Shown here in pieces: positions 9,013-32,000 of a stretch of 32,000 bases of DNA. Position 1 is the stretch's first letter, and the number at the start of each line of letters is the position of its first letter. A program made the position numbers and the translations under genes. This DNA is from Edaphobacter aggregans (lineage in GTDB: Bacteria; Acidobacteriota; Terriglobia; Terriglobales; Acidobacteriaceae), in the NCBI RefSeq assembly GCF_003945235.1, contig NZ_RSDW01000001.1, positions 3,450,001 to 3,482,000 on the forward strand, in the 5' to 3' direction. The notes under the pieces are model-generated. The model was not told the origin of the DNA, searched no databases, and saw only the letters and a program-made list of their open reading frames with translations.

Positions 9013-9879
9013 ATGAATCCCAGGTATGTTATTGTCACTCCCGTTCGCGATGAGGAGAAGTACATAGAGTCCACCATTGAGTCAGTTCTTCACCAAACGA
9101 TACTTCCTGCTGAATGGGTGATCGTCGACGATGGCTCCGTCGACCGAACTGGTGAAATTGCGGACCGATATGCGATGCAACATTCATGGATTAGTGTTAT
9201 ACACCGCGAGAACAGAGGCTTCCGGAAGTCGGGCGGCGGGGTGATGGAAGCGTTTTACGATGGGTACAACAAACTCCAATCCGCGCACTGGGACTTCATC
9301 GTAAAACTCGATGGAGATTTAGATTTTGCACCCGACTATTTCGAGAAGTGCTTCGCTCACTTTTACCAAGATTCTAAACTCGGAATCGGCGGAGGAGAGA
9401 TTCATCATCTCGTTGATGGCGAGCTGAAGCTTGAGGTAAACCCGAGGTTTCATGTACGAGGAGCGACCAAAATTTACAAAAGAGCATGTTGGGAAGGAAT
9501 CGAAGGACTTTGGTTAGCCCCGGGATGGGACACCATCGACGAAGTCAAGGCGAATATGTTGGGTTGGAAGACCTATGCTTTCCCCGAACTGCATCTTCTT
9601 CATCATCGTTTCACTGGAACTGAGGAAGGTCTGTTCCGCGACAGAGTGAAGCACGGAGTAGCCTGTTACGTTTCTTGGTATCACCCGCTCTATGTAGTTG
9701 CGAGTTGCCTGCGGCGTCTAACTCAAAAACCTTATATCGTCGGTTCAATTGGAATCATGTACGGATTTTTAAAAGCTCATTTTGCTCGTTTACCGCGGTT
9801 GGAAGATCGCACTTATCGGGCTTACATCCGCGGTCAGCAATTGAGACGCCTTTGCGGATTGCAAACAATTTGGAAGTAA
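9013..9879 (+). CDS. Glycosyltransferase family 2 (GT-A)
   Basis: 'YVIVTPVRDEEKYIESTIESVLHQTILPAEWVIVDDGSVDRTGEI' and DxD-type 'KLDGDLDF'. The C-terminal stretch 'YHPLYVVASCLRRL...IVGSIGIMYGFL' is hydrophobic/amphipathic. Confidence 0.8.
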   Translation: MNPRYVIVTPVRDEEKYIESTIESVLHQTILPAEWVIVDDGSVDRTGEIADRYAMQHSWISVIHRENRGFRKSGGGVMEAFYDGYNKLQSAHWDFIVKLDGDLDFAPDYFEKCFAHFYQDSKLGIGGGEIHHLVDGELKLEVNPRFHVRGATKIYKRACWEGIEGLWLAPGWDTIDEVKANMLGWKTYAFPELHLLHHRFTGTEEGLFRDRVKHGVACYVSWYHPLYVVASCLRRLTQKPYIVGSIGIMYGFLKAHFARLPRLEDRTYRAYIRGQQLRRLCGLQTIWK

Positions 9880-9903
9880 TCACTCACCTGTGGCGTCGAA
9901 CTC

Positions 9904-11805
9904 ATGTGTGGAATCTGCGGCAAATTTGCCTTCGGGCCTAACGAGACTGTGTCGCCCGAGCTAGTGCGGGCGATGGCTGCCACGATTCGCCATCGTGGTC
10001 CAGACGACGAGGGGTACTACGTCTCGGGTCCGGTTGGGCTGGGCTTCCGCCGGCTTTCCATTATTGATCTTCAAAGTGGTCACCAACCTCTTTCAAACGA
10101 AGACGGTTCAATATGGATCGTCTTCAACGGAGAAATCTATAACTACCAGGAACTCCGCTCGCTTCTCTTAAGCAAAGGGCATGTCTTCAAGACCAAGACT
10201 GACACAGAAGTAATCATTCACCTTTATGAGGAGTATGGGCCTGATTGTCTAAAGGAATTGCGTGGGATGTTTGCCTTCGCTATATGGGATGGCAATGCAA
10301 AGACTTTGTTTCTCGCGAGAGATCGGGTAGGAATCAAGCCGCTTTACTATTGCCTAGATGATTCATGTTTAGTTTTCGCGTCTGAAATCAAAGCAATACT
10401 AGCTGATCCTTCGATTGACAGACAGATAGCTCCCGAACTCATCGATCGATTTCTGACCTTTCTGTATGTGCCGGGCGAGGAGACGCTCCTCAATGGAATT
10501 TCCAAGTTGGCCCCGGGGCACTACCTACTCGTCAATGATGGCAAGGCGATAATTAGACAATACTGGGACCTGCGTTTCAGAGAGCCACTAGAGGCCGTGA
10601 GCGCTCAAGATGCAGAAGCCGGCTTGCGGGATCTTTTGATTGAGACCGTCGGGCTGCACATGATCGCGGATGTTCCAGTGGGTATTCTTCTGAGTGGAGG
10701 GATTGATTCCACAGGAATATTGAGCCTCGCTGTGAATGCTACGGATAAGAAGATCAGCACTTTTACAGTAGGGTTTTCCGGAAACGAAATTGCAGATGAG
10801 AGGCCCTTTGCAAGGCTAGTCGCCGACAAATTTGGAACCCAGCACTATGACATGACGATTTCGGCCGATGATTTCGCGGCATTCCTGCCCCGATACATAT
10901 GGCACATGGAAGAACCGGTCTGTGAACCTCCGGCCATCGCACTTTATTATGTTTCCAAACTGGCGAAAAAATATGTTACGGTGCTTCTCTCAGGAGAAGG
11001 TGGAGACGAAGCATTTGCAGGTTACAGCAATTATCGAAACCTGGTTTGGCTTGAGCGTCTCAAGGCAAACGGCTCTTGGTTGAACAGCATCTTCGCCAAA
11101 GGATTTTCCCTCGCCGACTCATTGCTTGGCTCCCGTCGATTATCTGAATACGGGCCATTGATGAAGGAACACTTTCCGGACTATTACTACAGTCGCACGT
11201 CAAATCCCAATCGTTTTACTGGAAACGGGTTGGGTAAGGTTTACTCTTCTGATTTTGCGGAAGCAATTGACCGTGAACATAGTCTCGAACCAGTGCGCAG
11301 GCTGCAAAACCACGTCCGAGACCATAACACACTCGACGCGATGCTTTACATCGACACCAAGACCTGGTTGCCAGACGATCTTCTGATCAAAGCAGACAAA
11401 ATGACGATGGCCAACTCGATTGAACTTCGCGTGCCATTGTTAGACCACCGAGTGTTGGAATTTGCAGCATCACTGCCTCCCAGTCTCAAACTGAAGGGTC
11501 ACAATACGAAGTACATCTTGAAACAGGCACTCTCGCAGAAAATTCCAAATGAGATCCGCAATCGGAAAAAGGCTGGATTCCCAGTACCTTACGAATCGTG
11601 GCTTCGGAATGATCTAAAGGATGTCATCTGGGACGTGTTGACAGACAGCAAGACAATCAGCAGAGGCTATTTTCGCAAAGCTGCGATAGAAAGCTTGCTC
11701 AAGGCCAACTCGAACGGTGCCAACTACTCCAAAGAGATATTTTCTCTGCTCAGCCTTGAGTTGTGGCAACGAACATTTCTGGATAAGGAACAAGTTGCCT
11801 TATAG
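9904..11805 (+). CDS. Asparagine synthase (glutamine-hydrolysing)-family amidotransferase, EPS-locus type
   Basis: N-terminal Cys nucleophile 'MCGICG'. GATase-II motifs 'RGPDDEG', 'GHQPL', 'IVFNGEIYNY'. PP-loop 'LLSGGIDSTGI', then 'LLSGEGGDEAFAGY'. 633 aa. Confidence 0.9.
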   Translation: MCGICGKFAFGPNETVSPELVRAMAATIRHRGPDDEGYYVSGPVGLGFRRLSIIDLQSGHQPLSNEDGSIWIVFNGEIYNYQELRSLLLSKGHVFKTKTDTEVIIHLYEEYGPDCLKELRGMFAFAIWDGNAKTLFLARDRVGIKPLYYCLDDSCLVFASEIKAILADPSIDRQIAPELIDRFLTFLYVPGEETLLNGISKLAPGHYLLVNDGKAIIRQYWDLRFREPLEAVSAQDAEAGLRDLLIETVGLHMIADVPVGILLSGGIDSTGILSLAVNATDKKISTFTVGFSGNEIADERPFARLVADKFGTQHYDMTISADDFAAFLPRYIWHMEEPVCEPPAIALYYVSKLAKKYVTVLLSGEGGDEAFAGYSNYRNLVWLERLKANGSWLNSIFAKGFSLADSLLGSRRLSEYGPLMKEHFPDYYYSRTSNPNRFTGNGLGKVYSSDFAEAIDREHSLEPVRRLQNHVRDHNTLDAMLYIDTKTWLPDDLLIKADKMTMANSIELRVPLLDHRVLEFAASLPPSLKLKGHNTKYILKQALSQKIPNEIRNRKKAGFPVPYESWLRNDLKDVIWDVLTDSKTISRGYFRKAAIESLLKANSNGANYSKEIFSLLSLELWQRTFLDKEQVAL

Positions 11806-19118: not shown

Positions 19119-20519
19119 ATGCAACCCAAAAATTTGGCATTCGGAGGAGGCGCGGGTGTAACCATGTTGCATCCGCTGGTGGCATTGTTGATGCTTATCG
19201 CCATCATGCAGATCCTTACACTTCCACGTAACAAGGCTATTGCACCCTTTCTCGTCACCTTTTTCACGATACCAACCGCACAGGTTGTTTTAGTGGGGCC
19301 TCTGCACTTTCCTGTCCTGCGCATCCTTATTTTGACCGGATTGGCCCGAATGGCTCTTCCCCGGAGCGCAGGGTCGGGAGGCACGTTCACAGGTGGCTTC
19401 AACATGCTCGACCAGATAGTGGTCTTCTGGACTGCGTCGGCTTTAATCGTTGTTTCTCTTCAGTGGATGGATCCCCAAGGGCTTATCAAATTTGTAGGGG
19501 ATTTTCTGGATTCACTAGGTGGCTACCTCGTGGTGCGATTTCTAATTCCGGACCGTGAGGCAGTCCGGCTTACGGTAAGGGCGCTGGCCTTGATTTGTCT
19601 GATTCAGGGCATGTGCATGCTGAGCGAACAATTCACTCATAGGAACGTGTTTGCCTTTTTGGGAGCAAATCAACCCACGATAAGAAACGGCAAGATACGG
19701 TCAGAGGGAGTTATGGGCACGCTCTTCGGAGGTACGTTTGCCGGCGTTTTAATCCCCTTGTTTCTTTGGTTGTGGACCGCGGGAAAATCTAAGTTTGCGG
19801 CGGCTCTGGGGTTGATTGGCGCCACTGCGATGGTGTTCGCATCTCATGCGAGCACGTCATGGTTGGCTTACGGAAGCAGCCTGCTGGGACTTTCTTTTTG
19901 GTTTGCGCGAAAGCGGATGCGACTCGTTCGCTGGGGGATTGTGACCGCTTTGGTGGGATGTCACCTTTTCATGAATGGGCCCGTTTGGTCTCTCATTGAA
20001 AAGATTGATCTGACTGGTGGCTCATCCAGCTATCACCGGTATGAATTAGTTGACAATTGCATTCGGCACTTTAGCGATTGGTGGCTTCTCGGCTATAAGT
20101 ATTATGGCAGATGGGGATTTGATATGTGGGATCTCTGCAACCAATTCGTTGTCGCCGCGTTGACCGGAGGCCTGATAACTCTGATCTCTTTCATCATGAT
20201 TTACAGTCGGAGCTTCGGACTAATCGGGAAGACGAGAAAACGGGTGCAGGGAATCCGTGCACAGGAGTGGTTCCTTTGGTGTCTTGGTTCGAGCCTGTTT
20301 GCCAATGTCGTGGCTTCCTTTGGCATCAACTATATGATTCAGCTGCAGCTCATGTTGTTTGTACTGATTGCCTGTGTTTCCATCGGAGTACTTAAGACCC
20401 GAACAACAGTGGAAAAAAAGCAGATCAGATATGCCGTTTATACCGTTGAACCCAAGGACATAGATGCGCCAGTTCACTCGCGGTATAGCCGGTTAGAGTC
20501 TGGGGCTTACTCTCGCTAA
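19119..20519 (+). CDS. Polytopic membrane protein, O-antigen ligase / Wzy polymerase-like
   Basis: 466 aa with ~10-12 hydrophobic helices. The central region 'FASHASTSWLAYGSSLLGLSFWF ... GGSSSYHRYELVDNCIRHFSDWWLLG' resembles the Wzy_C/O-antigen-ligase family loop. It sits in a locus that also has a Wzx. By-eye only. Confidence 0.55.
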   Translation: MQPKNLAFGGGAGVTMLHPLVALLMLIAIMQILTLPRNKAIAPFLVTFFTIPTAQVVLVGPLHFPVLRILILTGLARMALPRSAGSGGTFTGGFNMLDQIVVFWTASALIVVSLQWMDPQGLIKFVGDFLDSLGGYLVVRFLIPDREAVRLTVRALALICLIQGMCMLSEQFTHRNVFAFLGANQPTIRNGKIRSEGVMGTLFGGTFAGVLIPLFLWLWTAGKSKFAAALGLIGATAMVFASHASTSWLAYGSSLLGLSFWFARKRMRLVRWGIVTALVGCHLFMNGPVWSLIEKIDLTGGSSSYHRYELVDNCIRHFSDWWLLGYKYYGRWGFDMWDLCNQFVVAALTGGLITLISFIMIYSRSFGLIGKTRKRVQGIRAQEWFLWCLGSSLFANVVASFGINYMIQLQLMLFVLIACVSIGVLKTRTTVEKKQIRYAVYTVEPKDIDAPVHSRYSRLESGAYSR

Positions 20520-20784
20520 GAGTTCGATAGCCGAACTAACGATGGGCTTCCACCGCTTGCTGGCAGATGTCGGCAGCCCGCACTGAACTTTGGCAGCCAG
20601 ACGTGGTCTACCTCGACGACGCAGAAGGGGAACGTGGGGCGCTCCTTTAGGGGTGTTAGTGCGCATTGTTAGCGGAAAGAGACGATCCTAAGTCTATTGG
20701 GATCTATGCCTGCTGTCGGGCGGAAATGCGAAACAGGTAGCAGACCGCAAGCAGAACCCATAAGAGAGAGGCAGAGGTGTGAGA

Positions 20785-22593
20785 ATGCTACTAAACAATT
20801 TTCCAAACAAACTGGGCGGAGACAGAATCGGTTTGTGGTCGGCGAAATTGCTTTTTTGGGGGCTCGCGGGGTTCATATTCCTAAACTGCTTGGCCTTTTA
20901 CAGTTCCTATACGCCTTATAGCGATGACTTCGCATGGATCTTGCACTGCGATCATCGTTTTGCGAACGTGGCGGAGTGGTTCACCCGGGGCGCGACGGGC
21001 TACTTCGTCAACTATCAAGGACTCGTGAACCCGCTCCACACGGCTAACTTTCGGCCCCTTGCCGCCATTTTCTTTTACCTCGCCAGTTGGTTCCATCCTT
21101 GGATGGGATACCAGTCTCAACTGGCAATGAACTATGTCCTTCTAATTGTCGTCCTATGGGCTTACCTACGATTTCTTCAACGCTTCACCCCGCTTTCCGA
21201 CACGGTGCGCTGGATAGTAGCCGCGGCTTTTCTCGTGTCGCCCGTCTGGTCAGACAACTATTTTTATCCTTCCATTAGGCTTCATTTGCTCGAGTGCGCG
21301 GCAACGTTACTAGCGAGCCTACTGCTTCCGTCTGCGGCTGGTGGTTCCCTGTTCAGGCGAGTTGTTCCTGCGGCCATTGTTTCTGCAGGCGCGGTGTTCG
21401 CGCATGAACTCGGCATTGTGGCGCCATTGATTGTGGCGTGGACACATTACCACGTGTCGACTCGGGCTGGGTATCGGCGCAAAAAAGCTGCAGGTGAAGC
21501 ACTTCTGATTGTGGCCATATCTATTGGCCTATACCTCAGCGTTCGTCTGGCTTTCTTCCAAGTATCAGCGCAAAGTGGATATCAGGCGTATCAGGCGTAT
21601 CACTCCAAATCCCCAGCGGCTGCCGTATTGGGTCTCCTGATGCGACCTTTTTTTCCATTCGAGACATACGTTTCTGGGGAGGCACTAAGGAGCGGGGGGA
21701 CGCTGATTGGTTGGTGGATGGTGTTGCTTACGCTAGCAGTCTATATTTTGCTTGCCGTTGGACTAATACGTAATTCTCGTTACCGCAGTGATCTGCGAAT
21801 GCTGACAGGATGTGCTGCAATTGCGGCTGCGCCACTGGTTTTCGCTGTCGTGGTAAGACAAATGGGTATCCTGCTGATTTATTGTCTGCCGCTCGCTTAT
21901 TTGACCGTCGAATCTTCGATCTCCGTCAACGCCAACCGACTACTCCTTCGTCGGGTTGGAACCGCGCTTCTTGCTGGTGCGGGTGCGCTCTACATAGGTG
22001 CGGGAATCCAATCGTTTGTGAAGGCGCGCGCAAATTGGAGCTCGGAGTCGATATATTGTCGTTCCATGCGGGCCGAACTTGCGTCCGCCATGCAACGCGG
22101 TGCGAGGCATATTTTTCTTATTAATGATCCGTCAGCTTATTTCGGCAGCCTGGCAATGCTTCAACTCACGGCGAGGGAGAACGGGGTAACGCTGGCCGAT
22201 CCGACCGTAGTCAACCAGTTGGCGCTGGGGAAATACGAAGACGCGAGGTATACGCAGGATAATGGAATTATGGTTGAGTGTCGGGGAAACGTTGTGTCAA
22301 TTCAAATTGAGCTTGCTCCAGGCCGGAAGTTTGATTTTGTTGCGCCTCCAGAAATGCTCCTAACTCGCGCGAACGCCAGTGGCGGTCGATACACGTTTCC
22401 TTATGTTCAAAGAACGCAACATCGAGACATGCTAGCGCGCTCGATTGTCGAGAAAATCGATTTTGGTAATAGGCTCGTTTTCAACGCTCCAACCGCTTGT
22501 AACAGTGTTGGCGTCGTCGGGTTCCCCGGACGAGGTCAATTGCAGCCTCAGATATTCCTTTTGACCCCGCCAGGTTCGCAAGCAAAAAATTGA
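20785..22593 (+). CDS. Large polytopic membrane protein with a C-terminal soluble domain; GT-C-like (PMT_2/ArnT/TMTC-type) candidate glycosyltransferase
   Basis: ~11 hydrophobic helices over the first ~400 aa, then ~190 aa soluble. The first loop carries 'PYSDDFAWILH' followed by 'NFRPLAAIFFYL', echoing the acidic DD/DE loop motif and downstream 'YRPL' seen in GT-C/PMT_2-type enzymes. ATG 20785 follows AGAGG at 20773-20777; the track start is GTG 20779. Confidence 0.45.
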   Translation: MLLNNFPNKLGGDRIGLWSAKLLFWGLAGFIFLNCLAFYSSYTPYSDDFAWILHCDHRFANVAEWFTRGATGYFVNYQGLVNPLHTANFRPLAAIFFYLASWFHPWMGYQSQLAMNYVLLIVVLWAYLRFLQRFTPLSDTVRWIVAAAFLVSPVWSDNYFYPSIRLHLLECAATLLASLLLPSAAGGSLFRRVVPAAIVSAGAVFAHELGIVAPLIVAWTHYHVSTRAGYRRKKAAGEALLIVAISIGLYLSVRLAFFQVSAQSGYQAYQAYHSKSPAAAVLGLLMRPFFPFETYVSGEALRSGGTLIGWWMVLLTLAVYILLAVGLIRNSRYRSDLRMLTGCAAIAAAPLVFAVVVRQMGILLIYCLPLAYLTVESSISVNANRLLLRRVGTALLAGAGALYIGAGIQSFVKARANWSSESIYCRSMRAELASAMQRGARHIFLINDPSAYFGSLAMLQLTARENGVTLADPTVVNQLALGKYEDARYTQDNGIMVECRGNVVSIQIELAPGRKFDFVAPPEMLLTRANASGGRYTFPYVQRTQHRDMLARSIVEKIDFGNRLVFNAPTACNSVGVVGFPGRGQLQPQIFLLTPPGSQAKN

Positions 22594-22717
22594 ACGTTCG
22601 TTCAGCCTTGTGGCAATAAGGCGGAGCTTCGTGAGACCGATATCGCGACGCCAGGCAACTTACACGCGCCGATTAGTTTTGAGCCGATGGCTCGTGCCGA
22701 ATGAATAAGAGCGAACA

Positions 22718-24031
22718 ATGAGATCCGACAGTAGACCCATTCGAGTCCTATATAGTTTCCCCAACAGGCTGGGGGCAGGCCGGATTTGCTATACGGCCTG
22801 GCAGCAGGTGAACGGGCTAGCTGCGGCAGGCGCGGACGTGCTTGTTTGGCCGGCTTCTCTAGGTCGACCGGTCTCGCCGGGCATCAAAATTTTGCAGACG
22901 CTGGCTCTGGGGAAATTCCGCATACCGTACCGGATCGTAGGGACAATGCGCGCTGTAGCGCTTCACGACCGGATTGTGTCGCATCGAATCGAAAAGATGG
23001 GGGAACAGATTGACATCATTCACACTTGGCCACTTGGAGCGCTTGAGACGCTCAAGACAGCGGCGCGGCTGGGGATCCCGACATTACTCGAGCGACCGAA
23101 TGCACATACAGGTTTCGCTATGGACGTTGTGCGAAAGGAATGCGACCGACTAGGAATCGTACTGCCGCCGGATCAAGAACATGCGTACAATGCAGCAAAG
23201 CTGCACAAAGAAGAAAAGGAATACAAGCTAGCGACGCGGCTCCTGTGTCCATCTGATTTCGTAGTAAAGACGTTTCTCGACAAAGGGTTTGCGAAGGTAC
23301 ATCTTGCCCGGCATACCTACGGGTTCGACGAGAAAGTCTACTACCCTGACATGAAGCCGCGTGACCCCAAGCGAAAACTAAGCGTGCTGTTCGTCGGAGT
23401 CTGCGCGGTACGCAAGGGAGTGCACTATGCCCTTGAAGCATGGCTGCAGTCTCCTGCCTCAAAGGACGGAACATTCCTAATAGCTGGGGAGTTCTTGCCA
23501 GCCTACCGTGAAAAGCTCGAACCTATGCTGTCGCATTCAAGCGTAAAAGTTCTGGGCCATAGGACGGACGTGCCCGATTTAATGCGTCAAAGCGACATTC
23601 TGGTTCTGCCTACTATTGAAGAGGGAAGCGCACTCGTAACTTCCGAAGGCCGAGCTAGCGGGTGCGTCTTACTGGTATCGGAAGCTGCCGGCGCGATCGG
23701 TCGTCATATGGAAAATGCGCTCATCCACCAAGTCGGCGACGTTCCAGCGCTCGCTCAACACTTTACGATGTTGCACGAGGATCGCGTACTTTTGGAACGG
23801 CTCCGAATCGCCTCGGTGGCAGGTGTCTCCGAGATTACCTGGACGGCGGCCGGAGCGAGGCTCCTTGACGTATACCGCGAAACGATCGCGACCCACAAGG
23901 CAGCCGTCTCGAGAGAAATTTCTCAATCTCCGGATGCGTTTCCGCAAAAGCCTGATATTGGACCAACCGTACAAATGATAGGGAGCCCCCTTCATGAATC
24001 CCAAAGTGTCCGTAGTTATTCCCACATATAA
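22718..24031 (+). CDS. Glycosyltransferase family 4 (GT-B, group 1)
   Basis: 'IRVLYSFPNRLGAGRICYTAWQQVNGLAAAGADV', 'VLFVGVCAVRKGVHYALEAW', 'LPTIEEGSALVTSEGRASGCVLLVSE' (E-x7-E). Confidence 0.8.
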   Translation: MRSDSRPIRVLYSFPNRLGAGRICYTAWQQVNGLAAAGADVLVWPASLGRPVSPGIKILQTLALGKFRIPYRIVGTMRAVALHDRIVSHRIEKMGEQIDIIHTWPLGALETLKTAARLGIPTLLERPNAHTGFAMDVVRKECDRLGIVLPPDQEHAYNAAKLHKEEKEYKLATRLLCPSDFVVKTFLDKGFAKVHLARHTYGFDEKVYYPDMKPRDPKRKLSVLFVGVCAVRKGVHYALEAWLQSPASKDGTFLIAGEFLPAYREKLEPMLSHSSVKVLGHRTDVPDLMRQSDILVLPTIEEGSALVTSEGRASGCVLLVSEAAGAIGRHMENALIHQVGDVPALAQHFTMLHEDRVLLERLRIASVAGVSEITWTAAGARLLDVYRETIATHKAAVSREISQSPDAFPQKPDIGPTVQMIGSPLHESQSVRSYSHI

Positions 24032-24995
24032 CCGGGCAGATAAGGTTCGGCAAAGCGTGGAGAGCGTCCTAGCGCAGAGCTTCAAGGATCTGGAAGTCGT
24101 CGTGGTGGATGACGGATCATCTGACGAGACTGGGCAAACCCTCAACCACGATTTTGGAGATCGTATCCGTTACTACTTCCAACATAATCAGGGAGTAAGT
24201 GTGGCACGGAACAAGGGAATTGAGGAAGCTAGAGGTGAATGGATTGCTTTTCTGGATTCCGACGATCTGTGGGAGCAGGAAAAGCTCGAATATCAATTCA
24301 AGGCCTTGGATCGATTTGGCGCCCAATGTGGTGCGTGTTACACGGACGTCAAATTCTTCAACCACTCAGAAACCCGCACCATGTTTCAACTCGCTGAAAG
24401 CAACTACCGTCACGAAGAAGAGATGGGCGTAAATACCGACGTGCTTAGACTGCTGGTGAAGCCCGGAGGCGCTGGGATGGTGGTCTGCTTGTCCTCGTTC
24501 CTTGCGCGAAGGGATGTAATAAGAAAGATGGGGGGATTCGACACTGGCTTGTTGTATAGCCAGGACAGTGAATTCATGTTCCGCCTGGCGATGCTCACTG
24601 GCTTTTGTTACGTCAACTGCCCGCTTGTCTCATTTGACCGATCGCCTGTAGAAGATCGCCACGTGGGTGTAAGCTCCGCTTGGAACGAACTGGAATTTTT
24701 CCTTCGAGATAGCCAGCTGAGGCTCGAGGGGTTGTTGCGCTTGACTGATAACCAACCGTCTGCGATCCGCAGTCTGGTCCGCCGACAGCTGGGCTCCGTT
24801 CATAGTGGATGGGTAAATTGCTATTTAGAAACCGGACAGTACACAAAGGCGCGTACAGCCGCTTACAAGGCGGCGCAGATGAATTTAACTTTCAACTTTG
24901 CAGTGAAATGGCTGCTCACATGGATAAGTCCCAGGCTCGCCCTTCGAACTGTACGCCACCGGGAAAACAAAAGAGCTTCAGCATTCAGCGTGTAA
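23994..24995 (+). CDS. Glycosyltransferase family 2
   Basis: 'KVSVVIPTYNRADKVRQSVESVLAQSFKDLEVVVVDDGSSDETGQ', 'GVSVARNKGIEEA', 'FLDSDDLW'. GGGAG SD at 23983-23987. Overlaps the upstream GT4 by 38 nt. Confidence 0.85.
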   Translation: MNPKVSVVIPTYNRADKVRQSVESVLAQSFKDLEVVVVDDGSSDETGQTLNHDFGDRIRYYFQHNQGVSVARNKGIEEARGEWIAFLDSDDLWEQEKLEYQFKALDRFGAQCGACYTDVKFFNHSETRTMFQLAESNYRHEEEMGVNTDVLRLLVKPGGAGMVVCLSSFLARRDVIRKMGGFDTGLLYSQDSEFMFRLAMLTGFCYVNCPLVSFDRSPVEDRHVGVSSAWNELEFFLRDSQLRLEGLLRLTDNQPSAIRSLVRRQLGSVHSGWVNCYLETGQYTKARTAAYKAAQMNLTFNFAVKWLLTWISPRLALRTVRHRENKRASAFSV

Positions 24996-25015
24996 AAGCG
25001 GTGTTAGAAAAGCCC

Positions 25016-26020
25016 ATGGACAGAAGCACACCGTTAGCGGTTTCGGAACAGGAATCAGGGTATGGCGAAGGCATGGTCAAGGATAGCAATCAGGAGCTGT
25101 GCCCTATTTGCGGACAGGCTGGCCCCCGCGAGTGGCTACGGGCACCAGATCGTCTGCATGGCCGACAAGAGCAATATACGCTTCTACGCTGCCTGACCTG
25201 TTCGCTCGTATGGCTCAGCAAACCGCCGAAACCAGCAGAAATGCACAGACATTACACCGACGCATATGACAGGCTGATTTCGGCTACCGGCGAGAATTCG
25301 CCGGGACGGTGGCGGGACCGCAACGCCGTGCTGACGCTACACAAGCAGTCAGGAGCGCTTCTCGATCTGGGATGCAGTTCGGGTGCGTTTTTGCAATCTC
25401 TCGGCGGGAAGCATTGGGATCTCTTCGGCATCGAGATGTCTGCAGAATCGGCGAAACAAGCGCAGGAAAAAAGCGGCGCAAGTGTATTCGTAGGAGACAT
25501 TCTCCGCGCCCAATTTCCTCCAGCATCATTTGACGTGATTACGTGCTTCGATGTTTTCGAGCATTTGTATGAGCCGCGTCGGGTGATGGCAAAAGTGGCA
25601 GCTTGGTTGAAGCCGGATGGAATTTTTTATGTTCTGGTGCCCAATGTGGACGCTGCCGAGGCCCGTATATTTGGAAGTTATTGGCATGGACTCGAACTGC
25701 CGCGTCACCTGTTCCATTACTCACAAGAGTCTCTCAAATTCCTCGCCGAGTCATCCGGGTTGTGCCAGGTGTCGCTTGAGACGCGGCGCAATCCAGCTGT
25801 GGGGACCAGCCTGCGTTATGTCTGGGATGATGCTTTTCGTTTTGTAGGCATCCACCGAACCCCCACTGCCTACCGAGGTGAGGCGAGCCTACCATGGAGA
25901 GCAGCGCGGAAAATAGTGCGCTTAACCGCTCTTCGAGCGCTTCTGATGATGGCCCCCATCGTGGGAGGAGGCGAATCCATCCATGCCATCTTCCAAAAAA
26001 AGAAGGTTTTTAGTGAGTGA
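25016..26020 (+). CDS. Class I SAM-dependent methyltransferase with an N-terminal Cys4 zinc-ribbon
   Basis: 'CPICGQAG ... LLRCLTCSLVW' (CxxC...CxxC). SAM motif I 'ALLDLGCSSGAFLQSL', 'DVITCFDVFEHLYEP', 'LKPDGIFYVLVPN'. ATG 25016 (GTG 25001 also possible) lies just after the upstream TAA at 24993-24995. The track start at 24809 would overlap the GT2 by 187 nt. Confidence 0.75.
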   Translation: MDRSTPLAVSEQESGYGEGMVKDSNQELCPICGQAGPREWLRAPDRLHGRQEQYTLLRCLTCSLVWLSKPPKPAEMHRHYTDAYDRLISATGENSPGRWRDRNAVLTLHKQSGALLDLGCSSGAFLQSLGGKHWDLFGIEMSAESAKQAQEKSGASVFVGDILRAQFPPASFDVITCFDVFEHLYEPRRVMAKVAAWLKPDGIFYVLVPNVDAAEARIFGSYWHGLELPRHLFHYSQESLKFLAESSGLCQVSLETRRNPAVGTSLRYVWDDAFRFVGIHRTPTAYRGEASLPWRAARKIVRLTALRALLMMAPIVGGGESIHAIFQKKKVFSE

Positions 26021-26038
26021 ACGACCCATTCATTATAG

Positions 26039-26070
26039 GTGCGGAAGCCCCAAGGGGCACGAGACTTTTT
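26039..26070 (+). terminator. Weak candidate intrinsic terminator after the methyltransferase gene
   Basis: 'GTGCggaaGCCCCaaGGGGCAC' (imperfect stem with a very small loop), then 'gagacTTTTTct'. The T-run is only 5 nt and lies 5 nt from the stem. Confidence 0.3.
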
Positions 26071-26155
26071 CTCCACGGATTTGTTCGAAATCCTTGTACA
26101 AATCTGTAAATTCTCTCCCACTTATAGGGAAAATCCTGGAAGTTAGTGGGTCCTG

Positions 26156-27676
26156 ATGAATCTAATAAGAATCTTCGACCGCGCCAAGGTATTCATCGGC
26201 GTCTTAGTTTCGGGAGACGCGCTCAGAGTCAGAACCATGCGCGGCGGCGCTTGGCTGGGGATGGGAAGCATTGCGGAGCAAGCTGTGAGGTTTGCTCGCA
26301 ATATGCTCCTGGCGCGAATTCTGGCGCCAGGAGCCTTCGGAACTATGGCGATTGTCATTTCTTCTGCATCACTGGTGGATATGCTCACTGATGTCGGCGT
26401 AAGGGCGGCTATCATACAAAATCCTCGGGGAAGCGAGACGGCTTACTTGAATGCATCGTGGTGGATAGGGCTCGGCCGTTCGATCTTTTCTTACTCGATC
26501 ATCTTCGCAATGGCTCCTTGGATCGCCCACTTCTATGATCGTCCAGAATTGTCTGGGTTGCTCCGTGTCGCATTGTTGAGCGTGCTCTTCAATGGCGCCA
26601 TGAGCCCTCGTTCCGCCCTAGCCCAAAGGGAGATGAAATTGGGACGGTGGGCCGCAATTACAAATGGAGGCGGCATCTGTGGCGTAATCCTTACGGTCGC
26701 TCTCAGCTTCTATATGCGTAATGTGTGGGCTCTGGCGATTGGCTATTCTGGCGAGAACGCTTTCCGTCTTCTCTTGTCCTATGTCCTATGTCCTGGCTTG
26801 CCCTTACGGCACTTCGATCGGAACTCTGCTCGAGAACTCCTGATGTTCTCGCGGGGAATATTCGGTTTAGCCCCTCTAAACTTAATTATTTCGCGCGCGG
26901 ATATTTTTGTTCTGGGAAGGTTATATCCTTTGGCCGCCCTCGGACTATATACGATGGCGGTCGCATTGGTCACCACGCCTTCAATCTTCTGTACAAATAT
27001 GCTTGGGCAGACTCTTATGCCCGCTCTATCCACCATTCAGGAGGACGCACATCGCCTCAACCGAGTCCTTTTGGAGGTGACTTCGTGGCTTCTGCTGATA
27101 GGAATGCCGGCCGCAGTCTTCATATTCTTATCTGCACCATCCCTCCTTAGACTTGCGTATGGTGCACGCTACATTGCAGCCGCCGGGCCGTTATCCGTTG
27201 CATCCGTAGTGGTGTTCTTGACTGTGCTAAATTCTGTGCCGACTATTGTGTTGTTCGCCAAGGGCTATCCAGCATTACATCGTCATTCGGTCGTTGTCAG
27301 CGCTGTTGCAATGCTGGTCGTTGTCTATCCGGCCTGCAGAATTCTGGGACCAGTGGGAGGTCAAGTCGCCGCGCTGCTTGCAACCTCGTTTGGATATCTT
27401 ATTCAGCTGATCCTTCTGCGTTCGGTAACCGGCCTGAACCTGTTTCGGTATGGAGCCGCACTTGTACTGCCAACCCTCGGATCTGTGGCAATGTTGATTA
27501 TTGTGCTTGGCGGTCGACGTCTTGGCTTGGTGGTTAGGCCTAGCACCGATATAGCTTTTTGTGCCGCAAGTTGTCTCATCCCTTTTGCACTGTGCGCTGC
27601 AGTTCGTCTGCGCTCTTCAAATAGAGCCCATATCTTGTACGCTTCTAAAGCGACGGAATCGGCAGCGGCACGATAG
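26156..27676 (+). CDS. Wzx-type oligosaccharide flippase (polysaccharide biosynthesis protein, MOP/PST family)
   Basis: 506 aa, ~14 hydrophobic helices. N-terminal 'GAWLGMGSIAEQAVRFARNMLLARILAPGAFGTMAIV' matches the PST-family opening pattern (LaRlL-P-x-x-FG). Confidence 0.75.
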   Translation: MNLIRIFDRAKVFIGVLVSGDALRVRTMRGGAWLGMGSIAEQAVRFARNMLLARILAPGAFGTMAIVISSASLVDMLTDVGVRAAIIQNPRGSETAYLNASWWIGLGRSIFSYSIIFAMAPWIAHFYDRPELSGLLRVALLSVLFNGAMSPRSALAQREMKLGRWAAITNGGGICGVILTVALSFYMRNVWALAIGYSGENAFRLLLSYVLCPGLPLRHFDRNSARELLMFSRGIFGLAPLNLIISRADIFVLGRLYPLAALGLYTMAVALVTTPSIFCTNMLGQTLMPALSTIQEDAHRLNRVLLEVTSWLLLIGMPAAVFIFLSAPSLLRLAYGARYIAAAGPLSVASVVVFLTVLNSVPTIVLFAKGYPALHRHSVVVSAVAMLVVVYPACRILGPVGGQVAALLATSFGYLIQLILLRSVTGLNLFRYGAALVLPTLGSVAMLIIVLGGRRLGLVVRPSTDIAFCAASCLIPFALCAAVRLRSSNRAHILYASKATESAAAR

Positions 27677-28000
27677 TACTCATTCACACAGGAAAGATAA
27701 TCCAGTGAACTCTAATATTTTTGGCGCGTCAAAATTCGAAAGACTAACAAGATCTATCTATATACAATGAGAAATTCATCGATTGAATCTGGTCAAATAA
27801 GTTATCCAGTGAGGAATGGCGAGGTATCGTCGCTTGATATTCTTCAGTACTTGAGAGAAACGGGATGACTGCTCACACATGTCCATCCAATTGTTTGGAA
27901 GCTCGACAGGAACGGAGCTATAAGAACGAACAAAGTGTTCGCGGCTTCTGTGCTCGACTCGATGGCCGATGTTACATCGGGCAGTCACTAGTTAAATCAC

Positions 28001-28024
28001 ATCCCGCATTCTGGGTTGCGGGAT
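28001..28024. other. Perfect 8-bp-stem hairpin / inverted repeat in an AT-rich intergenic gap
   Basis: ATCCCGCA-ttctgggt-TGCGGGAT, read directly. No T-run follows on either strand, so it is not a canonical terminator. It lies 49 nt upstream of ATG 28073, which has an AAGGAG SD. Confidence 0.3.
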
Positions 28025-28072
28025 AAAATAAAGTCTCTCTTCTAACTTGAAGGTACTATCAAGGAGCGAATC

Positions 28073-28786
28073 ATGGTTAGCCTTCTCCGCGAAGCGTGGC
28101 TCCGGTTCGAAGACCCGTTGACACTTTTGCCGCGCACCAGAAACAAGCTCTTCAGTCTTTGGATGCGTACGATTTATCCGTTTGCATCCGCAGGACGTAA
28201 GCTATCTGTGCACTATCCCTGCGCATTACGGAGACCAACTGCGAAATATGTTAGTTTGGGAAACTCCGTGATCATTGGAAAAGATTCCACCCTTTATATT
28301 GTCCAAGATGACGTGAATGAGTTGAAATTAGTAATTGGTGACAACTGTGTCATAGGGGCCCGAAGCACCCTCTCGGCCAGAAACCACATTCACATTGGAC
28401 AGGATGTCATCATGTCAACGTCGGTGCTTATCCAGGATCATCACCACACGCACGAAAGCACCGACCTCCCAATCCGCGATCAGGGTATCACATCCGGTGG
28501 ACGAATTCGAATTGAGCAAGGATGTTGGATCGGTCAGGGCGCCGCAATCCTTTGCAATGAGGGCGAAATAGTGATTGGCCGGAACAGTGTGATTGGGGTG
28601 AACTCTGTAGTAGGCAGAAGTCTTCCTCCGTATTCTGTGGTGGTTGGTAACCCAGGCATAATCGTTAAACGGTCCAATCCGATAAAAGCCTGCGTCGGCG
28701 GCGAAAATACTACGATGATTACTCGGTCTCTGGACGATACACGGAAGGAGTATCAAAACGAAGCCTTGCTGGAGTCGCGCACCTGA
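28073..28786 (+). CDS. Hexapeptide-repeat (LbH) acyl/acetyltransferase, WcaF/LacA/NodL-like
   Basis: 'VIGDNCVIGARSTLSARNHIHIGQDVIMSTSVLIQDHHH', 'IRIEQGCWIGQGAAILCNEGEIVIGRNSVIGVNSVVGRSLPPYSVVVGNPGIIVKR'. Strong SD (AAGGAG). Confidence 0.8.
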   Translation: MVSLLREAWLRFEDPLTLLPRTRNKLFSLWMRTIYPFASAGRKLSVHYPCALRRPTAKYVSLGNSVIIGKDSTLYIVQDDVNELKLVIGDNCVIGARSTLSARNHIHIGQDVIMSTSVLIQDHHHTHESTDLPIRDQGITSGGRIRIEQGCWIGQGAAILCNEGEIVIGRNSVIGVNSVVGRSLPPYSVVVGNPGIIVKRSNPIKACVGGENTTMITRSLDDTRKEYQNEALLESRT

Positions 28787-28968
28787 GTTGGAGATGTGTT
28801 GCGATTATTCCTCATCGATGAGTAGTAAAGTAACGCTGTTGCAAATGAAGGGCAATTTGGTTTCGGCAGAAATACCCCAACCAAAGTTTGTATGTGCGGT
28901 TCAACTCTTCTGGGCAGGCAAATCGCTCAGAGAAAGATATCCTTTTGAAAGTTGAGAATTTAACGCCA

Positions 28969-29214
28969 ATGGACATTCGATCTGAAATCGTTACCCAATT
29001 CACTCAGGTTGCAGAAGAACACACTATGCGACTTGCGCCTTTAGCCGACGATCTGGAACTGCTCAGCTCAGGTCTCGACTCACTTTGTTTCGCGATTGTG
29101 GTAGTTCGGCTTCAAGATGTGCTTGGGATCGACCCCTTTAGCGCGTCTGAAGACGTCCTCTTTCCAGTTACCTTTGGCGAATTCGTCAAATTTTACGAAA
29201 ATGTGGAACGATAA
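28969..29214 (+). CDS. Stand-alone acyl/peptidyl carrier protein (phosphopantetheine-binding)
   Basis: With ATG 28969 the product is 81 aa, with 'LLSSGLDSLCFAIVVVRLQDVLGIDPF'. The DSL serine falls at residue 38, the usual ACP position. The track ORF starts at 28888; TTG 28945 is an alternative. Confidence 0.7.
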   Translation: MDIRSEIVTQFTQVAEEHTMRLAPLADDLELLSSGLDSLCFAIVVVRLQDVLGIDPFSASEDVLFPVTFGEFVKFYENVER

Positions 29215-30078
29215 ATGCAAGTACAGCCTCGAAATGCTATTTGATATAGCAACGTAATTTACCTACACGCCTTCCAGTAGGACTATGAGTGATCTGACTG
29301 GGGGTCGACGCCGCTATAGCCCATGGCGAAGGGGCAGTGAGTAATCTGGCCATCTGTGCAACGGCCAGCCAGTACTCCGAGACAATGGGCTCTGATGAAC
29401 ATGACAACTTCACGGCACGTAGTTTTCTTCTCTCTCCGATTTATCTTGCGAGGCACCTCTCTTTCGATATTGACGCGCATGAGGTGGTTCGTAATTGCGA
29501 CGTAATTCTAAAAAGTGCAAAAATTCGCCTACGGCGATGTGAGCGGACTCTAGATACTCGCCGAGAGTGTGTAATTTACTTGTTAATGTGTGCAACACCC
29601 TGCAATCCCAAGATCGCCTGCGGAGAGGCCCTTGTTAAGAAAGGTCTAATCTCCCCCAAAACCATCAGCAATTCTTGTCGTGTCGATTACCTGCGTTTTG
29701 GCCATCATCGTGCTACGCTCTGTACTTTATAGAGTCACAAAGCGTTCGAAGTCTGAGTCACGGATGAAAACGAGGGCAGTAGCCCACAGGGCGAAGCTAT
29801 GTCTTTCTAGAACGTTACATCGAGAAGAACATGACTGGCGCTGGGGGGCCGCTGGCTGAATCTCCGTGCGCTGGCCAGAGGAACGCAGTCTCGTTCAAAA
29901 AATCTTTTACCCGCCGTCTGGCGACTCGTGTCGATGAGCCTGCCCACATTGACGGCGCTAACTGAAGATCTTGGCTGTCTATTAACTGTGCTTCGTGATC
30001 GTCGCAGCTCGCTTGAGAGGCTGCTTGTTTTTGAAAGGTATTCTCTTCGCTATCACGTTTGTGCGTGTGTGAGATTTT

Positions 30079-31479
30079 ATGACAATGCAGCAAGGTAAAT
30101 GGGCATCGCTTTGGAACGCGCTTAGCGCCGCGGGAGATTTGTCTGGCCGCTTTGTATTTGGCGCGGAAGCAAGTATCGCTTTGAGCGACCTACTTGCCGG
30201 GTCTGCTCTTTATGGTAGAGGTGATGAACTGGGTGGTCGATCCGTTCTTGTTACGACAACGAACCAGTTCACCACGGCCTCGGCACTCATAGAACTGGAC
30301 GGCATCGCGCGCCGTATGGTTCTTTGTCCACCAGATTTACCGGTTGAACATCTACCGTACGTCATCGAATCGGCAAATGTCGATGCAATCGTATCCGACC
30401 GTACGATACTTGGATTGGATATTCACCGCCCCCTATGCTTCTGTCCGTGCACTCGGAAGATTGTGCCCGAAAATTGTAGTCGGAGCGCACAATACCAAAC
30501 GGAATGGATTCTTCTCACCTCTGGTACGACTGGGCTACCGAAACTTGTTGTCCACACATTATCTAGCTTGTCCGGCGCCATTAAGGCCGGCAGTGGTTCA
30601 GCAGAACCGACCGTTTGGAGCACGTTCTACGACATTCGCCGTTACGGCGGTCTCCAGATATTCCTTCGCGCTTTCCTTACTGGGACGTCCTTAGTTCTTT
30701 CGAGTGCGGAGGAGTCAACGGCAGATTTTCTTGCTCGAGCCGGCTCGCACGGAGTCACCCACATTTCCGGAACACCATGCCAGTGGCGCCGGGCGTTGAT
30801 GAGTCCGTCAGCTAATCTTATCCAGCCCAAATATATTCGTTTGTCAGGAGAGATCGCGGATCAGGCAATCCTCAACCATCTGCGATCCTTTTATCCGCAA
30901 GCTCGAATCGCGCACGCTTTCGCCTCAACAGAGGCCGGCGTGGCGTTTGAGGTGAACGATGGTATCGCGGGCTTTCCTGCAAGTGCGATAGAGGACACCC
31001 CCGATGTCGAAATGAAAGTTGAGGATCGTTCGTTGTGGATACGTTCAAATCGCACTGCAAGCCGCTATCTTGGCGACCAACCTCCTATCTTGAAAAACGC
31101 GGATGGATTTGTAGACACCCGCGACCTGATTGAATTGCGAGATGATAGATACTACTTCGTCGGTCGGCAGGATGGAGCGATTAACGTCGGAGGTTTGAAA
31201 GTGTACCCCGAAGAAGTGGAGGCGGTTATCAATCGTCATCCAGAGGTTCAGATGTCGTTAGTACGGACGAAAAGGAATCCGATTACGGGTGCGCTCGTCG
31301 TCGCCGACGTAGTTCTGACGGAACAACAATCTGCCAGTCGTGATATGCGTGCACTCCAGGGTGACATCCTACTGCTCTGCCGCGAAACTCTTTCTTCCCA
31401 TAAAGTTCCGGTCGCAATTAACTTTATTCCCGCGTTGGCGGTCACTGAATCTGGGAAACTCGTGCGCCGCAATGCGTAA
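30079..31479 (+). CDS. AMP-dependent synthetase/ligase (ANL-superfamily adenylating enzyme; acyl- or aminoacyl-carrier-protein ligase)
   Basis: 'WILLTSGTTGLPKLVVHT' (A3), 'AFASTEAGVAF' (A5), 'GFVDTRDLIELRDDRYYFVGRQDGAINVGGLKVYPEEVEAVI' (A7/A8), 'ESGKLVRRN' (A10 Lys). Confidence 0.85.
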   Translation: MTMQQGKWASLWNALSAAGDLSGRFVFGAEASIALSDLLAGSALYGRGDELGGRSVLVTTTNQFTTASALIELDGIARRMVLCPPDLPVEHLPYVIESANVDAIVSDRTILGLDIHRPLCFCPCTRKIVPENCSRSAQYQTEWILLTSGTTGLPKLVVHTLSSLSGAIKAGSGSAEPTVWSTFYDIRRYGGLQIFLRAFLTGTSLVLSSAEESTADFLARAGSHGVTHISGTPCQWRRALMSPSANLIQPKYIRLSGEIADQAILNHLRSFYPQARIAHAFASTEAGVAFEVNDGIAGFPASAIEDTPDVEMKVEDRSLWIRSNRTASRYLGDQPPILKNADGFVDTRDLIELRDDRYYFVGRQDGAINVGGLKVYPEEVEAVINRHPEVQMSLVRTKRNPITGALVVADVVLTEQQSASRDMRALQGDILLLCRETLSSHKVPVAINFIPALAVTESGKLVRRNA

Positions 31480-32000
31480 TGTAATTGTGACAGGCGGAAG
31501 CCGAGGGTTGGGTCTGGGTATTGCCCGTAAATTGACGGAAACTGGATATCGTGTCATTGCAGTTGCGCGCAAACAAAATGATGAACTCGCGGTGGCAATG
31601 CAGGAAGCCGAAAAAGCGAATCCCGGATCGTTTCACTTCGCGCCCTTTGATCTCGCCGAGATCGAAGGCATTCCTGATTTGATCAAGACCTTGCGGAAAG
31701 ACTTCGGTCCGATCTATGGACTGGTTAATAACGCCGGTTTGAGTTTTGATGGAACTCTTGCCCTTATGCCTGTGTCCCAGATTGAACAACTTCTGCGTGT
31801 AAATACGCTGTCGCCAATTGTGTTCACCAAATATATGGTGCGCTCGATGATGGCTGATGGAGGCGGTCGCATCGTCAATATGGCGTCTATCACCGCCTTC
31901 ACAGGCTATAGTGGCCTCTCGGTGTACGGGGCAACAAAGGCATCGATCATTGGTTTTTCCCGATCTATAGCGCGAGAGGTCGGACGCATGGGAGTAAATG
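31472..32000 (+). CDS. Short-chain dehydrogenase/reductase, FabG (3-oxoacyl-ACP reductase)-like; 3' end beyond the window
   Basis: Not in the ORF track because there is no stop in the window. My translation from ATG 31472 (8-nt overlap with the ligase) reads MRNVIVTGGSRGLGLGIARKL...GLVNNAGL...NMASITAF...SVYGATKASIIGFSRSIA. It shows TGxxxGxG, NNAG and the catalytic S...YxxxK. Confidence 0.85.
   Translation, partial: MRNVIVTGGSRGLGLGIARKLTETGYRVIAVARKQNDELAVAMQEAEKANPGSFHFAPFDLAEIEGIPDLIKTLRKDFGPIYGLVNNAGLSFDGTLALMPVSQIEQLLRVNTLSPIVFTKYMVRSMMADGGGRIVNMASITAFTGYSGLSVYGATKASIIGFSRSIAREVGRMGVN

Follow-up and report, generated by a model that had tools for sequence, protein, structure and literature searches.

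Non-sugar substituents determine the charge and hydrophobicity of bacterial surface glycans, as well as their antigenicity and their recognition by phages. Hydroxybutanoyl decorations of exopolysaccharides (EPS) and amino sugars are well documented in the literature; O-(3-hydroxybutanoyl) groups occur on Rhizobium EPS (PMC9048898), and the 3-hydroxybutanoyl sugars of Acinetobacter depend on other genes, without an acyl carrier protein (ACP). In Flavobacterium psychrophilum, wfpC-wfpG encode an ACP, ketoacyl-ACP synthase (KAS), ketoreductase and PglD-like transferase functions for an N-3,5-dihydroxyhexanoyl sugar (PMC6519341), and among the Vibrio cholerae O1 tetronate genes, the 471-residue WbeL carries an ATP-binding motif and is needed for perosamine N-acylation (PMC3441752). 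An ACP, a 3-oxoacyl-ACP reductase and an AMP-dependent synthetase have been noted together, but not characterised, in flagellin glycosylation islands, both in Aeromonas (PMC7874193) and in Enterobacteriaceae (PMC4875605). The locus described here lies at positions 28,073 to 32,000 of a 32,000-nt stretch of Edaphobacter aggregans DNA (hereafter the window; contig NZ_RSDW01000001.1, positions 3,450,001 to 3,482,000, forward strand), where genes for a left-handed β-helix (LbH) acyltransferase, an ACP, an adenylating ligase of the ANL superfamily and a FabG-like short-chain dehydrogenase/reductase (SDR) follow a complete Wzx-type EPS locus. This module is a divergent, rearranged member of a widespread, biochemically uncharacterised glycan-acylation trio, namely ACP, ligase and SDR. 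In soil Acidobacteriota, this trio forms part of a larger conserved cassette. The phylum ranks with the most abundant groups of soil bacteria, and its EPS probably contributes to the aggregation of soil and to the tolerance of acid and desiccation.

The window ACP is an intact stand-alone carrier of 81 residues counted from its ATG (28969-29214, + strand), with the phosphopantetheine serine in an SGLDSL motif that is invariant in 82 carrier homologues and aligns with GADSL (Ser36) of Escherichia coli AcpP. The Pfam PP-binding model scores 16.9 bits on this carrier, below the gathering score of 20.8, and is passed by the carrier homologues of the distant loci L089 (28 bits) and L090 (26.6 bits); the window ACP is 70% identical to the ligase-coupled ACP of the close relative L001. 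The ligase (466 residues, 30079-31479, +) exceeds the gathering scores of both AMP-binding (51.3 versus 29.9 bits) and AMP-binding_C (42 versus 24.5 bits), and its core motifs TSGTTGxPK (T147-K155), T284/E285, D349, G362-R363-D365...K374 and G459-K460 are invariant in 31 homologues. Additionally, the AlphaFold2 (AF2) model of the ligase adopts a two-domain ANL fold (pLDDT 76.9, pTM 0.77), which Foldseek aligns at E-values of 1e-20 to 1e-23 with MenE, McbA, CytC1, DltA and others. Besides MenE and McbA, the fold neighbours include the carrier loaders CytC1, FadD10, HitB, DltA and PltF; the top match is McbA, a carrier-independent amide synthetase. Searches of the PDB by phmmer and by profile align no more of the ligase than its P-loop and C-terminal domain, and neither they nor the Foldseek neighbours, which do not discriminate between substrates, allow a substrate to be read. 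The Asp of the ligase sequence FYDIRRYGG aligns with the His of LFHVSG in MenE, and we take it to lie at the position just ahead of the Asp that binds the amino group in amino-acid adenylation domains; no conclusion is drawn from either correspondence.

The SDR reading frame is cut by the window end after its first 176 codons (31472-32000, +) and matches adh_short (145 bits) and KR (48.7 bits). It carries TGGSRGLG, NNAG and S...YGATK, corresponding to the TGxxxGxG, NNAG and S-Y-K elements of classical SDRs, and reaches a full length of 244 residues in relatives. A full-length orthologue scores 213.7 against the FabG equivalog model TIGR01830, whose cut-off is 297.75, and the enzyme is best classed as FabG-like but not FabG. 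The initial annotation of this DNA had named an 81-residue carrier with a GLDSL site, a ligase with motifs A3, A5, A7/A8 and A10, an SDR overlapping the ligase gene by 8 nt and an LbH acyltransferase preceding all three. Each of these holds: all core motifs of the ligase are present, the SDR starts at 31472 and the ligase gene ends at 31479, and the open reading frame (ORF) at 28073-28786 matches Hexapep.

Across lineages, the trio can be defined as consecutive genes on one strand for an ACP with the signature SGLDSLxFAI...DPF...YPxTFxEF, a ligase of ~450-470 residues and an SDR of ~240-250 residues; the window holds all three, with the ACP displaced by 864 nt, and the gene order recurs in 80 close and 7 distant loci. 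A search for distant ligases over 1.8 billion representatives yields 1165 clusters (50% identity) that match the ligase at E<=1e-30, all of ~440-480 residues and without fusions; annotated plasmids supplied additional examples. In the seven informative distant loci, where the ligase is 34-42% identical to that of the window, the ACP-ligase-SDR order is kept throughout (7/7), and every one of them adjoins polysaccharide or flagellin-glycan genes. The distant ACPs show the signature LLxSGLDSLxFAI...DPF...YPxTFxEF in 5 of the 6 readable loci, the sequence in L090 being more diverged; for the seventh locus no DNA is at hand.

The surroundings of these distant trios are those of glycan biosynthesis. 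In L086, rmlACDB (in the order rmlA, rmlC, rmlD, rmlB) precedes the trio, which is followed by an LbH gene, a methyltransferase, FdtA, DegT and Wzx, and in the O-antigen-like P0257 locus (the one without DNA) a DegT gene lies ahead of the trio and a PglD-type LbH, GT4, GT2 and Wzy follow it. L084 places the trio after UGDH and before an unassigned gene, a CE4 deacetylase and, further on, DegT, a 2-epimerase and NeuB; the CE4 gene, two genes after the SDR, agrees with an earlier proposal that deacetylation frees an amine for reacylation. L087 runs from a CMP-sugar synthetase through further genes to a GNAT acyltransferase, the trio and NeuB, while the trio of L085 stands beside Wzx, tyrosine kinase, Wzz and priming transferase genes. 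In L089 (Qingshengfaniella), the order is glycosyltransferase, LbH, ACP, ligase and SDR. In L090 (Azospirillum brasilense Sp7), pseI, further genes and a hydrolase lead to ACP, ligase, SDR, KAS III and flagellin; this trio lies on plasmid p3 at 341-346 kb, flanked by the alpha/beta hydrolase and KAS III, its ligase is ~42% identical over the ~58% of the protein that aligns, and its setting suggests that the flagellin glycan carries an acylated nonulosonic acid. An LbH gene directly adjoins the trio in three of the seven (L086, the P0257 locus and L089), and an LbH transferase thus accompanies the trio repeatedly across lineages. A blastn comparison of a low-GC trio locus with 5,426 E. coli genomes returned nothing and gave no tie to an O-antigen of known structure.

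The same link is seen at shorter range. Homologues of the window's own EPS proteins, used as probes, flank the cassette in 37 of 82 close loci, including those of Rokubacteria and other phyla, and the otherwise unassigned neighbouring ORFs are mostly GT4, WecG, Bac_transf, Poly_export, CE4 and GT2. Together, conserved order and neighbourhood support the view that ACP, ligase and SDR form a functional unit that belongs with glycan biosynthesis, where the trio probably makes a non-sugar acyl decoration. With moderate confidence, we therefore read the window genes as the first part of a dedicated acyl-carrier module that lies distally in a Wzx-type EPS locus and would decorate the polysaccharide.

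In such a module, the 466-residue ligase would adenylate a small carboxylic acid and thioesterify it onto the phosphopantetheine arm of the 81-residue ACP. The ligase is predicted to load a carrier protein, and we infer that its substrate is holo-ACP because the ACP and ligase genes overlap in relatives and carrier-loading enzymes are found among its fold neighbours. The SDR would then adjust the oxidation state of the acyl group on the carrier, in the simplest case by converting 3-oxo to 3-hydroxy, and an acyltransferase, for which the adjacent LbH protein is the candidate, would move the acyl group to an amine or hydroxyl of the polysaccharide or of a nucleotide-sugar precursor. This last enzyme would differ by locus, being an LbH, a GNAT or something else; in Azospirillum, KAS III would give acetoacetyl-ACP and then 3-hydroxybutanoyl-ACP. 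The preference for ACP over coenzyme A (CoA), the 3-oxo/3-hydroxy chemistry and the identities of transferase and acceptor are accordingly given here as conditional assignments. One candidate acceptor is encoded at the other end of the window, where overlapping genes for a GFO/IDH/MocA oxidoreductase, a 168-residue LbH protein and a DegT aminotransferase (2542-5277, +) form an arrangement that we take to be typical of 3-amino-sugar (WbpB/WbpD/WbpE-like) pathways; this set would supply an EPS amino sugar to receive the carrier-bound acyl group. Of the carrier-dependent sugar acylation put forward in the initial annotation, the functional unit in glycan loci stands, while the LbH protein is only a putative user of acyl-ACP and the minimal-module reading does not account for the link to MetY and MetA described below.

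The transferase step is the point at which the proposed mechanism meets its strongest competitor. The window LbH protein (237 residues, 28073-28786, +) matches Hexapep (32-35 bits) and Hexapep_2, and its best NCBIfam families, WbbJ (69.5 versus a cut-off of 243) and WcaF (57.2 versus 192), both score under their cut-offs. Its nearest solved structures are maltose, galactoside and polysialic-acid O-acetyltransferases, which align through the His-containing loop; LpxA and LpxD are absent among the 25 NCBIfam families shown (35 matched) and the 38 PDB matches, and no PglD signal appears in either set. The protein is tentatively assigned on these matches to the sugar O-acetyltransferase type, and its use of acyl-ACP is putative. 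Orthologues are 97% identical in the sister contig L083 and 73% in L003. A Wzx-LbH pair stands ahead of the cassette in nine related loci, and in L004, L005, L009, L011 and L012 the LbH orthologue follows Wzx and precedes a conserved leader and a heme-oxygenase-like (HDO) gene.

It is possible, although we judge it less probable than the mechanism above, that the trio feeds glycan acylation while the window LbH is an ordinary acetyl-CoA O-acetyltransferase and another enzyme transfers the acyl group. The structural neighbourhood of the window LbH and its position between Wzx and leader in those five loci favour this arrangement, as does the observation that LbH genes adjoining the trio elsewhere come from other subfamilies, with only 24-46% local identity to it. 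Other candidates exist: the WbpD-like LbH at 3537-4043 beside DegT, by which the GFO-LbH-DegT set would provide an amino sugar together with its own N-acyltransferase; the hydrolase pair of relatives; and a MetA-like acyltransferase with an intact Cys/His/Glu triad, in which a minimal cassette copy in one metagenome-assembled genome (MAG) ends. Against it stand the conservation of the LbH-ACP pair in the window, in L083 and in L003, where a P450 gene comes next, and the recurrence of the order LbH-ACP-ligase-SDR in the alphaproteobacterial locus L089.

Relatives of the ligase at 60-89% identity are very numerous. The larger cassette was delineated by a genome scan with one genome per species, which found 413 relatives; of these the best 80 loci were analysed. 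About 59 of these come from Acidobacteriaceae and other Terriglobia, 10 from Bryobacterales and 5 from Rokubacteria, the remainder being a single Binataceae, a single Acidiferrales and three MAGs labelled proteobacteria. The Rokubacteria loci have a GC content of 61-72% and are therefore not mis-binned. Synteny by tblastn reveals a near-fixed order, [HDO]-[hydrolase 2-hydrolase 1]-ACP-ligase-SDR-Lig2-[luciferase-like monooxygenase]-PLP decarboxylase-MetY-MetA-[aldehyde dehydrogenase], where PLP is pyridoxal phosphate. Counting only loci with enough flank (61 for downstream-type and 63 for upstream-type components), the SDR follows the ligase in 61/61, and Lig2 is present in 59/61 and the PLP decarboxylase, MetY and MetA in 58/61 each; upstream, ACP and HDO each occur in 59/63, the hydrolase pair in 42/63 and an LbH gene within 5.5 kb in 18/63. 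In 63 of 78 loci, fewer than 300 nt separate the start of the ACP gene from that of the ligase gene downstream, and the two mostly overlap.

The cassette proteins are assigned with unequal precision. Lig2 is a long-chain acyl-CoA synthetase (751 bits versus a cut-off of 625), MetY and MetA pass their family models, and the monooxygenase belongs to the luciferase-like MupA/Atu3671 family (407 versus 244). The decarboxylase is a group II enzyme (PF00282) whose PDB matches are only generic members of that group, HDO has no sequence relative in the PDB, and for the hydrolases of relatives the exosortase-A hydrolase models are the sole NCBIfam matches, far under their cut-offs. The MetA orthologue of L001 keeps the catalytic Cys/His/Glu of E. 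coli MetA. In MAG MFD06092.bin.1.173, two cassette copies lie on two contigs (L060 and L062), one of them full-length; the minimal copy reads HDO-hydrolase 2-hydrolase 1-ACP-ligase-SDR-MetA, and its MetA-like gene passes the MetA cut-off. This suggests that the MetA-like acyltransferase is integral to the cassette. Variation around the trio takes other forms as well: in the Terracidiphilus group a CysE/DapD-like LbH gene lies between ACP and ligase (L068), and in L068 itself (Terracidiphilus gabretensis, 5124-9925) an ATP-grasp protein and a flavin-dependent oxidoreductase are encoded just upstream of HDO. In L031, a Bryobacterales MAG, a 1984-residue non-ribosomal peptide synthetase (NRPS) with the domain order A-T-C-A-T-TE (1723-7674) lies directly upstream of HDO and ACP.

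The association of the trio with MetY and MetA persists where Lig2 and the decarboxylase are missing (L079, L047, L062), under shuffled gene order (L078, L065, L080) and across phyla of differing GC content, and it may be a real pathway link or a conserved neighbourhood. A tentative extension, which we regard as rather unlikely, makes the whole cassette from HDO to MetA a single pathway in which homoserine activation, gamma-replacement and decarboxylation are coupled to carrier-protein acyl chemistry. We know of no pathway that joins carrier-protein acyl chemistry with homoserine activation and sulfhydrylation, and nothing specific was found in the literature on the cassette or the exosortase-associated set. 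Were the extension true, soil-bacterial EPS would carry a new substituent as the product, either an acyl or amine group derived from an amino acid or a lipid anchor, and the MetA-like enzyme would be a dedicated pathway acyltransferase, serving more than methionine synthesis.

The same gene content could instead belong to a cassette that makes a free small molecule or lipid, such as an N-acyl amine or an amino-acid-derived metabolite, and merely neighbours the EPS locus; this we consider unlikely. Conservation with a long-chain acyl-CoA synthetase, a group II PLP decarboxylase, MetY and MetA would fit such a product, as would tailoring-type genes that vary by locus (HDO, the alpha/beta-hydrolase pair, the MupA-type monooxygenase and, in L003, the P450), the NRPS of L031, the type I secretion genes that come after the trio in L085, and the carrier-independent McbA as top fold match of the ligase. 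The distant trios, however, lie inside sugar-nucleotide operons amid aminotransferases, NeuB/PseI and glycosyltransferases, the cassette is flanked by polysaccharide genes in several phyla, and both LbH and PglD-type sugar acyltransferases directly adjoin the trio.

In the window itself, the cassette is visibly altered at its front. An exact 40-mer search identified a metagenome contig, Ga0070734_10000204 (L083), with 94.8% identity to window positions 21565-32000 and the same layout, Wzx-LbH-ACP-gap-ligase-SDR. Past the window end it continues with the full 244-residue SDR (91.8% identical to that of L001 over 244 residues), Lig2, the PLP decarboxylase and MetY, in agreement with the initial annotation, which expected the module to run on. 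Among the further partners it had considered, the decarboxylase is there in L083, a ketosynthase and a dehydratase are not, and hydrolases lie upstream in relatives and are absent here. The ligase is 98.7% identical in L083, with 19 synonymous and 6 non-synonymous differences; the ACP shows 3 and 2, respectively, and the SDR stretch is 99.8% identical at the nucleotide level. The mostly synonymous character of these differences indicates purifying selection on the genes.

The 864-nt gap between ACP and ligase (29215-30078), missed in the earlier annotation, opens with a fast-evolving non-coding spacer (29215..29700) that is 82.6% identical to L083 with 41 gapped columns and holds no detectable protein remnant; Rfam gives no match in 27600-30200 at E<=1. 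The spacer is followed by a conserved block (~29690-29830), the core of which is the 18-nt leader motif GCCCACAGGGCGAAGCTA (29782..29799, +), with one exact match in the window versus 0.04 expected by chance. This motif recurs ~125-345 nt (typically ~215 nt) upstream of HDO in L001, L003, L004, L005 and L011, and in L007 and L018 it precedes a NusG-like (NusG/RfaH-like) gene that itself stands ahead of HDO. It is invariant in the window, L083 and five of the seven relatives; L018 has one mismatch, and in L003 an upstream base differs. The motif would mark the start of the ligase transcription unit and, given what we take to be a loose resemblance to ops/JUMPStart-type elements, could be the site for a specialised antiterminator. 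A riboswitch was considered and rejected: the consensus RNA fold is weak (-7.5 kcal/mol) with little covariation, and the block is treated as a sequence motif. Consensus scans for promoters and terminators performed no better than on shuffled sequences.

Downstream of the motif lies a decayed second ACP copy (29832..30098, +), from which the serine-site region is deleted. It matches ACP residues 41-81 by tblastn in two frames, its translation ends ...VRFYDNAAR* where the L001 ACP ends ...VRFYDNAKN* (asterisks denote stops), and it is 91.5% identical to L083 with indels; a gene caller predicted it as an 88-residue ORF in a metagenome contig. This pseudogene overlaps the ligase start exactly as the functional ACP of relatives does, which identifies the ancestral position of the gene. 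A second relic, a pseudogene fragment of the HDO gene with an in-frame stop, lies between Wzx and LbH (27793..27906, +); it is 41% identical to residues 39-79 of L001 HDO (tblastn), and its translation LSSEEWRGIVA*YSSVLERN corresponds to the HDO stretch ERRGIIARYSSVLEGN. From the two relics it follows that the cassette front has been rearranged and partly lost in this lineage. The window strain thus carries a reduced cassette, from which HDO and both hydrolases are gone and in which the ACP has been relocated beside the LbH gene.

Such losses raise the question of whether the module is decaying and non-functional in this strain, with HDO and hydrolases lost, an HDO fragment with a stop and an ACP pseudogene left behind, and an 864-nt insert that breaks the coupling of ACP to ligase. 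We consider this very unlikely: the LbH, ACP, ligase and SDR genes are intact, they match those of L083 at 97-99.8% identity and differ mostly at synonymous sites, in contrast to only 82.6% identity for the spacer, and HDO or the hydrolases are missing from other intact loci too. Least probable of all is that these are housekeeping lipid genes, a fatty-acid CoA ligase and a FabG near a spare ACP by chance, for although the database name of the ligase is 'long-chain fatty acid--CoA ligase' and the best matches of the SDR are FabG models, the scores fall far below the cut-offs (ligase <=103 bits versus 330-950; SDR 213.7 versus 297.75) and the order with a dedicated ACP is fixed across phyla, in glycan loci.

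Several observations weigh against the preferred reading, a dedicated acyl-carrier module that decorates the EPS. As far as found in the literature, no member of the trio has been biochemically characterised; CoA ligases and amide synthetases stand beside carrier loaders among the structures nearest to the ligase, and in sequence and profile searches of the PDB the N-terminal half of the ligase matches no characterised ANL enzyme. The window LbH is closest to O-acetyltransferases that use acetyl-CoA. Moreover, the leader motif separates the LbH-ACP pair from the ligase downstream, and the two halves may therefore be transcribed separately, while the translational coupling of ACP to ligase found in other loci is broken here. 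The NRPS directly upstream of the cassette in L031 and the near-universal link to Lig2, PLP decarboxylase, MetY and MetA, which a simple sugar acylation does not need, add to these points; the latter hints at a different or more complex product.

The EPS locus upstream of the module was outlined by family scans of the window ORFs. It comprises a tyrosine kinase, a priming transferase, the GFO-LbH-DegT amino-sugar trio, glycosyltransferases, an AsnB-like amidotransferase, a CE4 deacetylase, a FemAB-like protein, a methyltransferase and Wzx. The Wzx-type flippase (26156..27676, +; Polysacc_synt_3, 201 bits) is the last core EPS gene and borders the module; the MOP flippase model scores 144.6 bits on it, under a cut-off of 273. 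No exosortase model matches among the scanned window ORFs, several of the upstream ones having been scanned with Pfam only, and no gene for a phosphopantetheinyl transferase (PPTase) is found in the window. Two long ORFs (19119-20519 and 20779-22593, +) match neither Pfam nor NCBIfam, contain 9 and 7 hydrophobic segments, respectively, and are located where the AT skew is strongly negative; they probably encode a Wzy-like polymerase or membrane proteins similar to O-antigen ligases, and the first has homologues at 36-49% identity upstream of the cassette in many relatives. The GT4 glycosyltransferase gene at 22718-24031 is 81% identical to L083 versus ~97% for its flanking genes, which suggests allele replacement or recombination within the EPS locus. 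As listed, the methyltransferase ORF shares 187 nt (24809-24995) with the GT2 gene before it, and its Pfam domain begins only at residue 174; translation probably starts from a later codon.

A conserved 8-12-gene cassette that ends EPS loci and is common to Acidobacteriota and Rokubacteria offers a testable handle on polymer decoration. Solving one member of the trio would also better annotate the many loci that now carry the names 'fatty acid--CoA ligase' and 'FabG'.

Compared with described systems, the module resembles wfpC-wfpG of F. psychrophilum in placing a dedicated ACP and a 3-ketoacyl-ACP reductase within a polysaccharide locus, where a PglD-like LbH protein is the predicted transferase of the hydroxyacyl group from the ACP to a sugar amine (PMC6519341). 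The wfp chain is built by two ketoacyl-ACP synthases, whereas the window is without one and its ANL ligase would load a preformed acid; moreover, the window LbH is closest to the O-acetyltransferase type and the wfp enzyme PglD-like, and the two systems are likened by gene roles. The V. cholerae O1 genes wbeK-O/rfbK-O offer a second parallel, likewise by gene roles, an O-antigen locus with a ligase of ~470 residues. This tetronate set is said to include an ACP and a hexapeptide transferase, and reportedly has LuxC/LuxE-like and iron alcohol dehydrogenase genes, not a FabG-like SDR.

The exosortase A-associated set (TIGR03098-03101) likewise comprises a ligase, an ACP, two unlike alpha/beta hydrolases and a PLP decarboxylase beside an EPS locus, and exosortase A EPS loci share tyrosine kinase, AsnB-like amidotransferase, FemAB-like and CE4 genes with the window. 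The suggestion in the initial annotation that the module parallels such ligase/ACP sets does not extend to membership, as the ligase scores 66.7 bits versus the TIGR03098 cut-off of 592.35. As to the other components, the L001 hydrolases score 62.5 versus 168 and 71.5 versus 203, under their cut-offs, and the pair is absent from the window; the decarboxylase belongs to group II (PF00282) in both L001 and L083, and its matches do not include TIGR03099, the model of a fold-type III decarboxylase. The exosortase A set is thus best taken as a role-for-role parallel only. Resemblance in logic alone connects the module to the Dlt system, in which the stand-alone adenylating DltA loads the small dedicated carrier DltC, and to the Nod system, in which the dedicated ACP NodF donates an acyl group to a de-N-acetylated sugar (NodE/NodA-NodB). 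Homologues of DltB/DltD, NodA and NodE are absent from the module, and DltA is one of many equally distant fold neighbours of the ligase (ranks 32-50). The flagellin glycosylation islands share gene types with the window, their ACP, reductase and synthetase being its three, again in a glycan-modification locus. LuxE and LuxC are usual additions in these islands, whose target is a nonulosonic acid linked to protein, whereas the window trio stands in the context of a Wzx-dependent EPS locus and belongs to a cassette that adds MetY, MetA and a decarboxylase.

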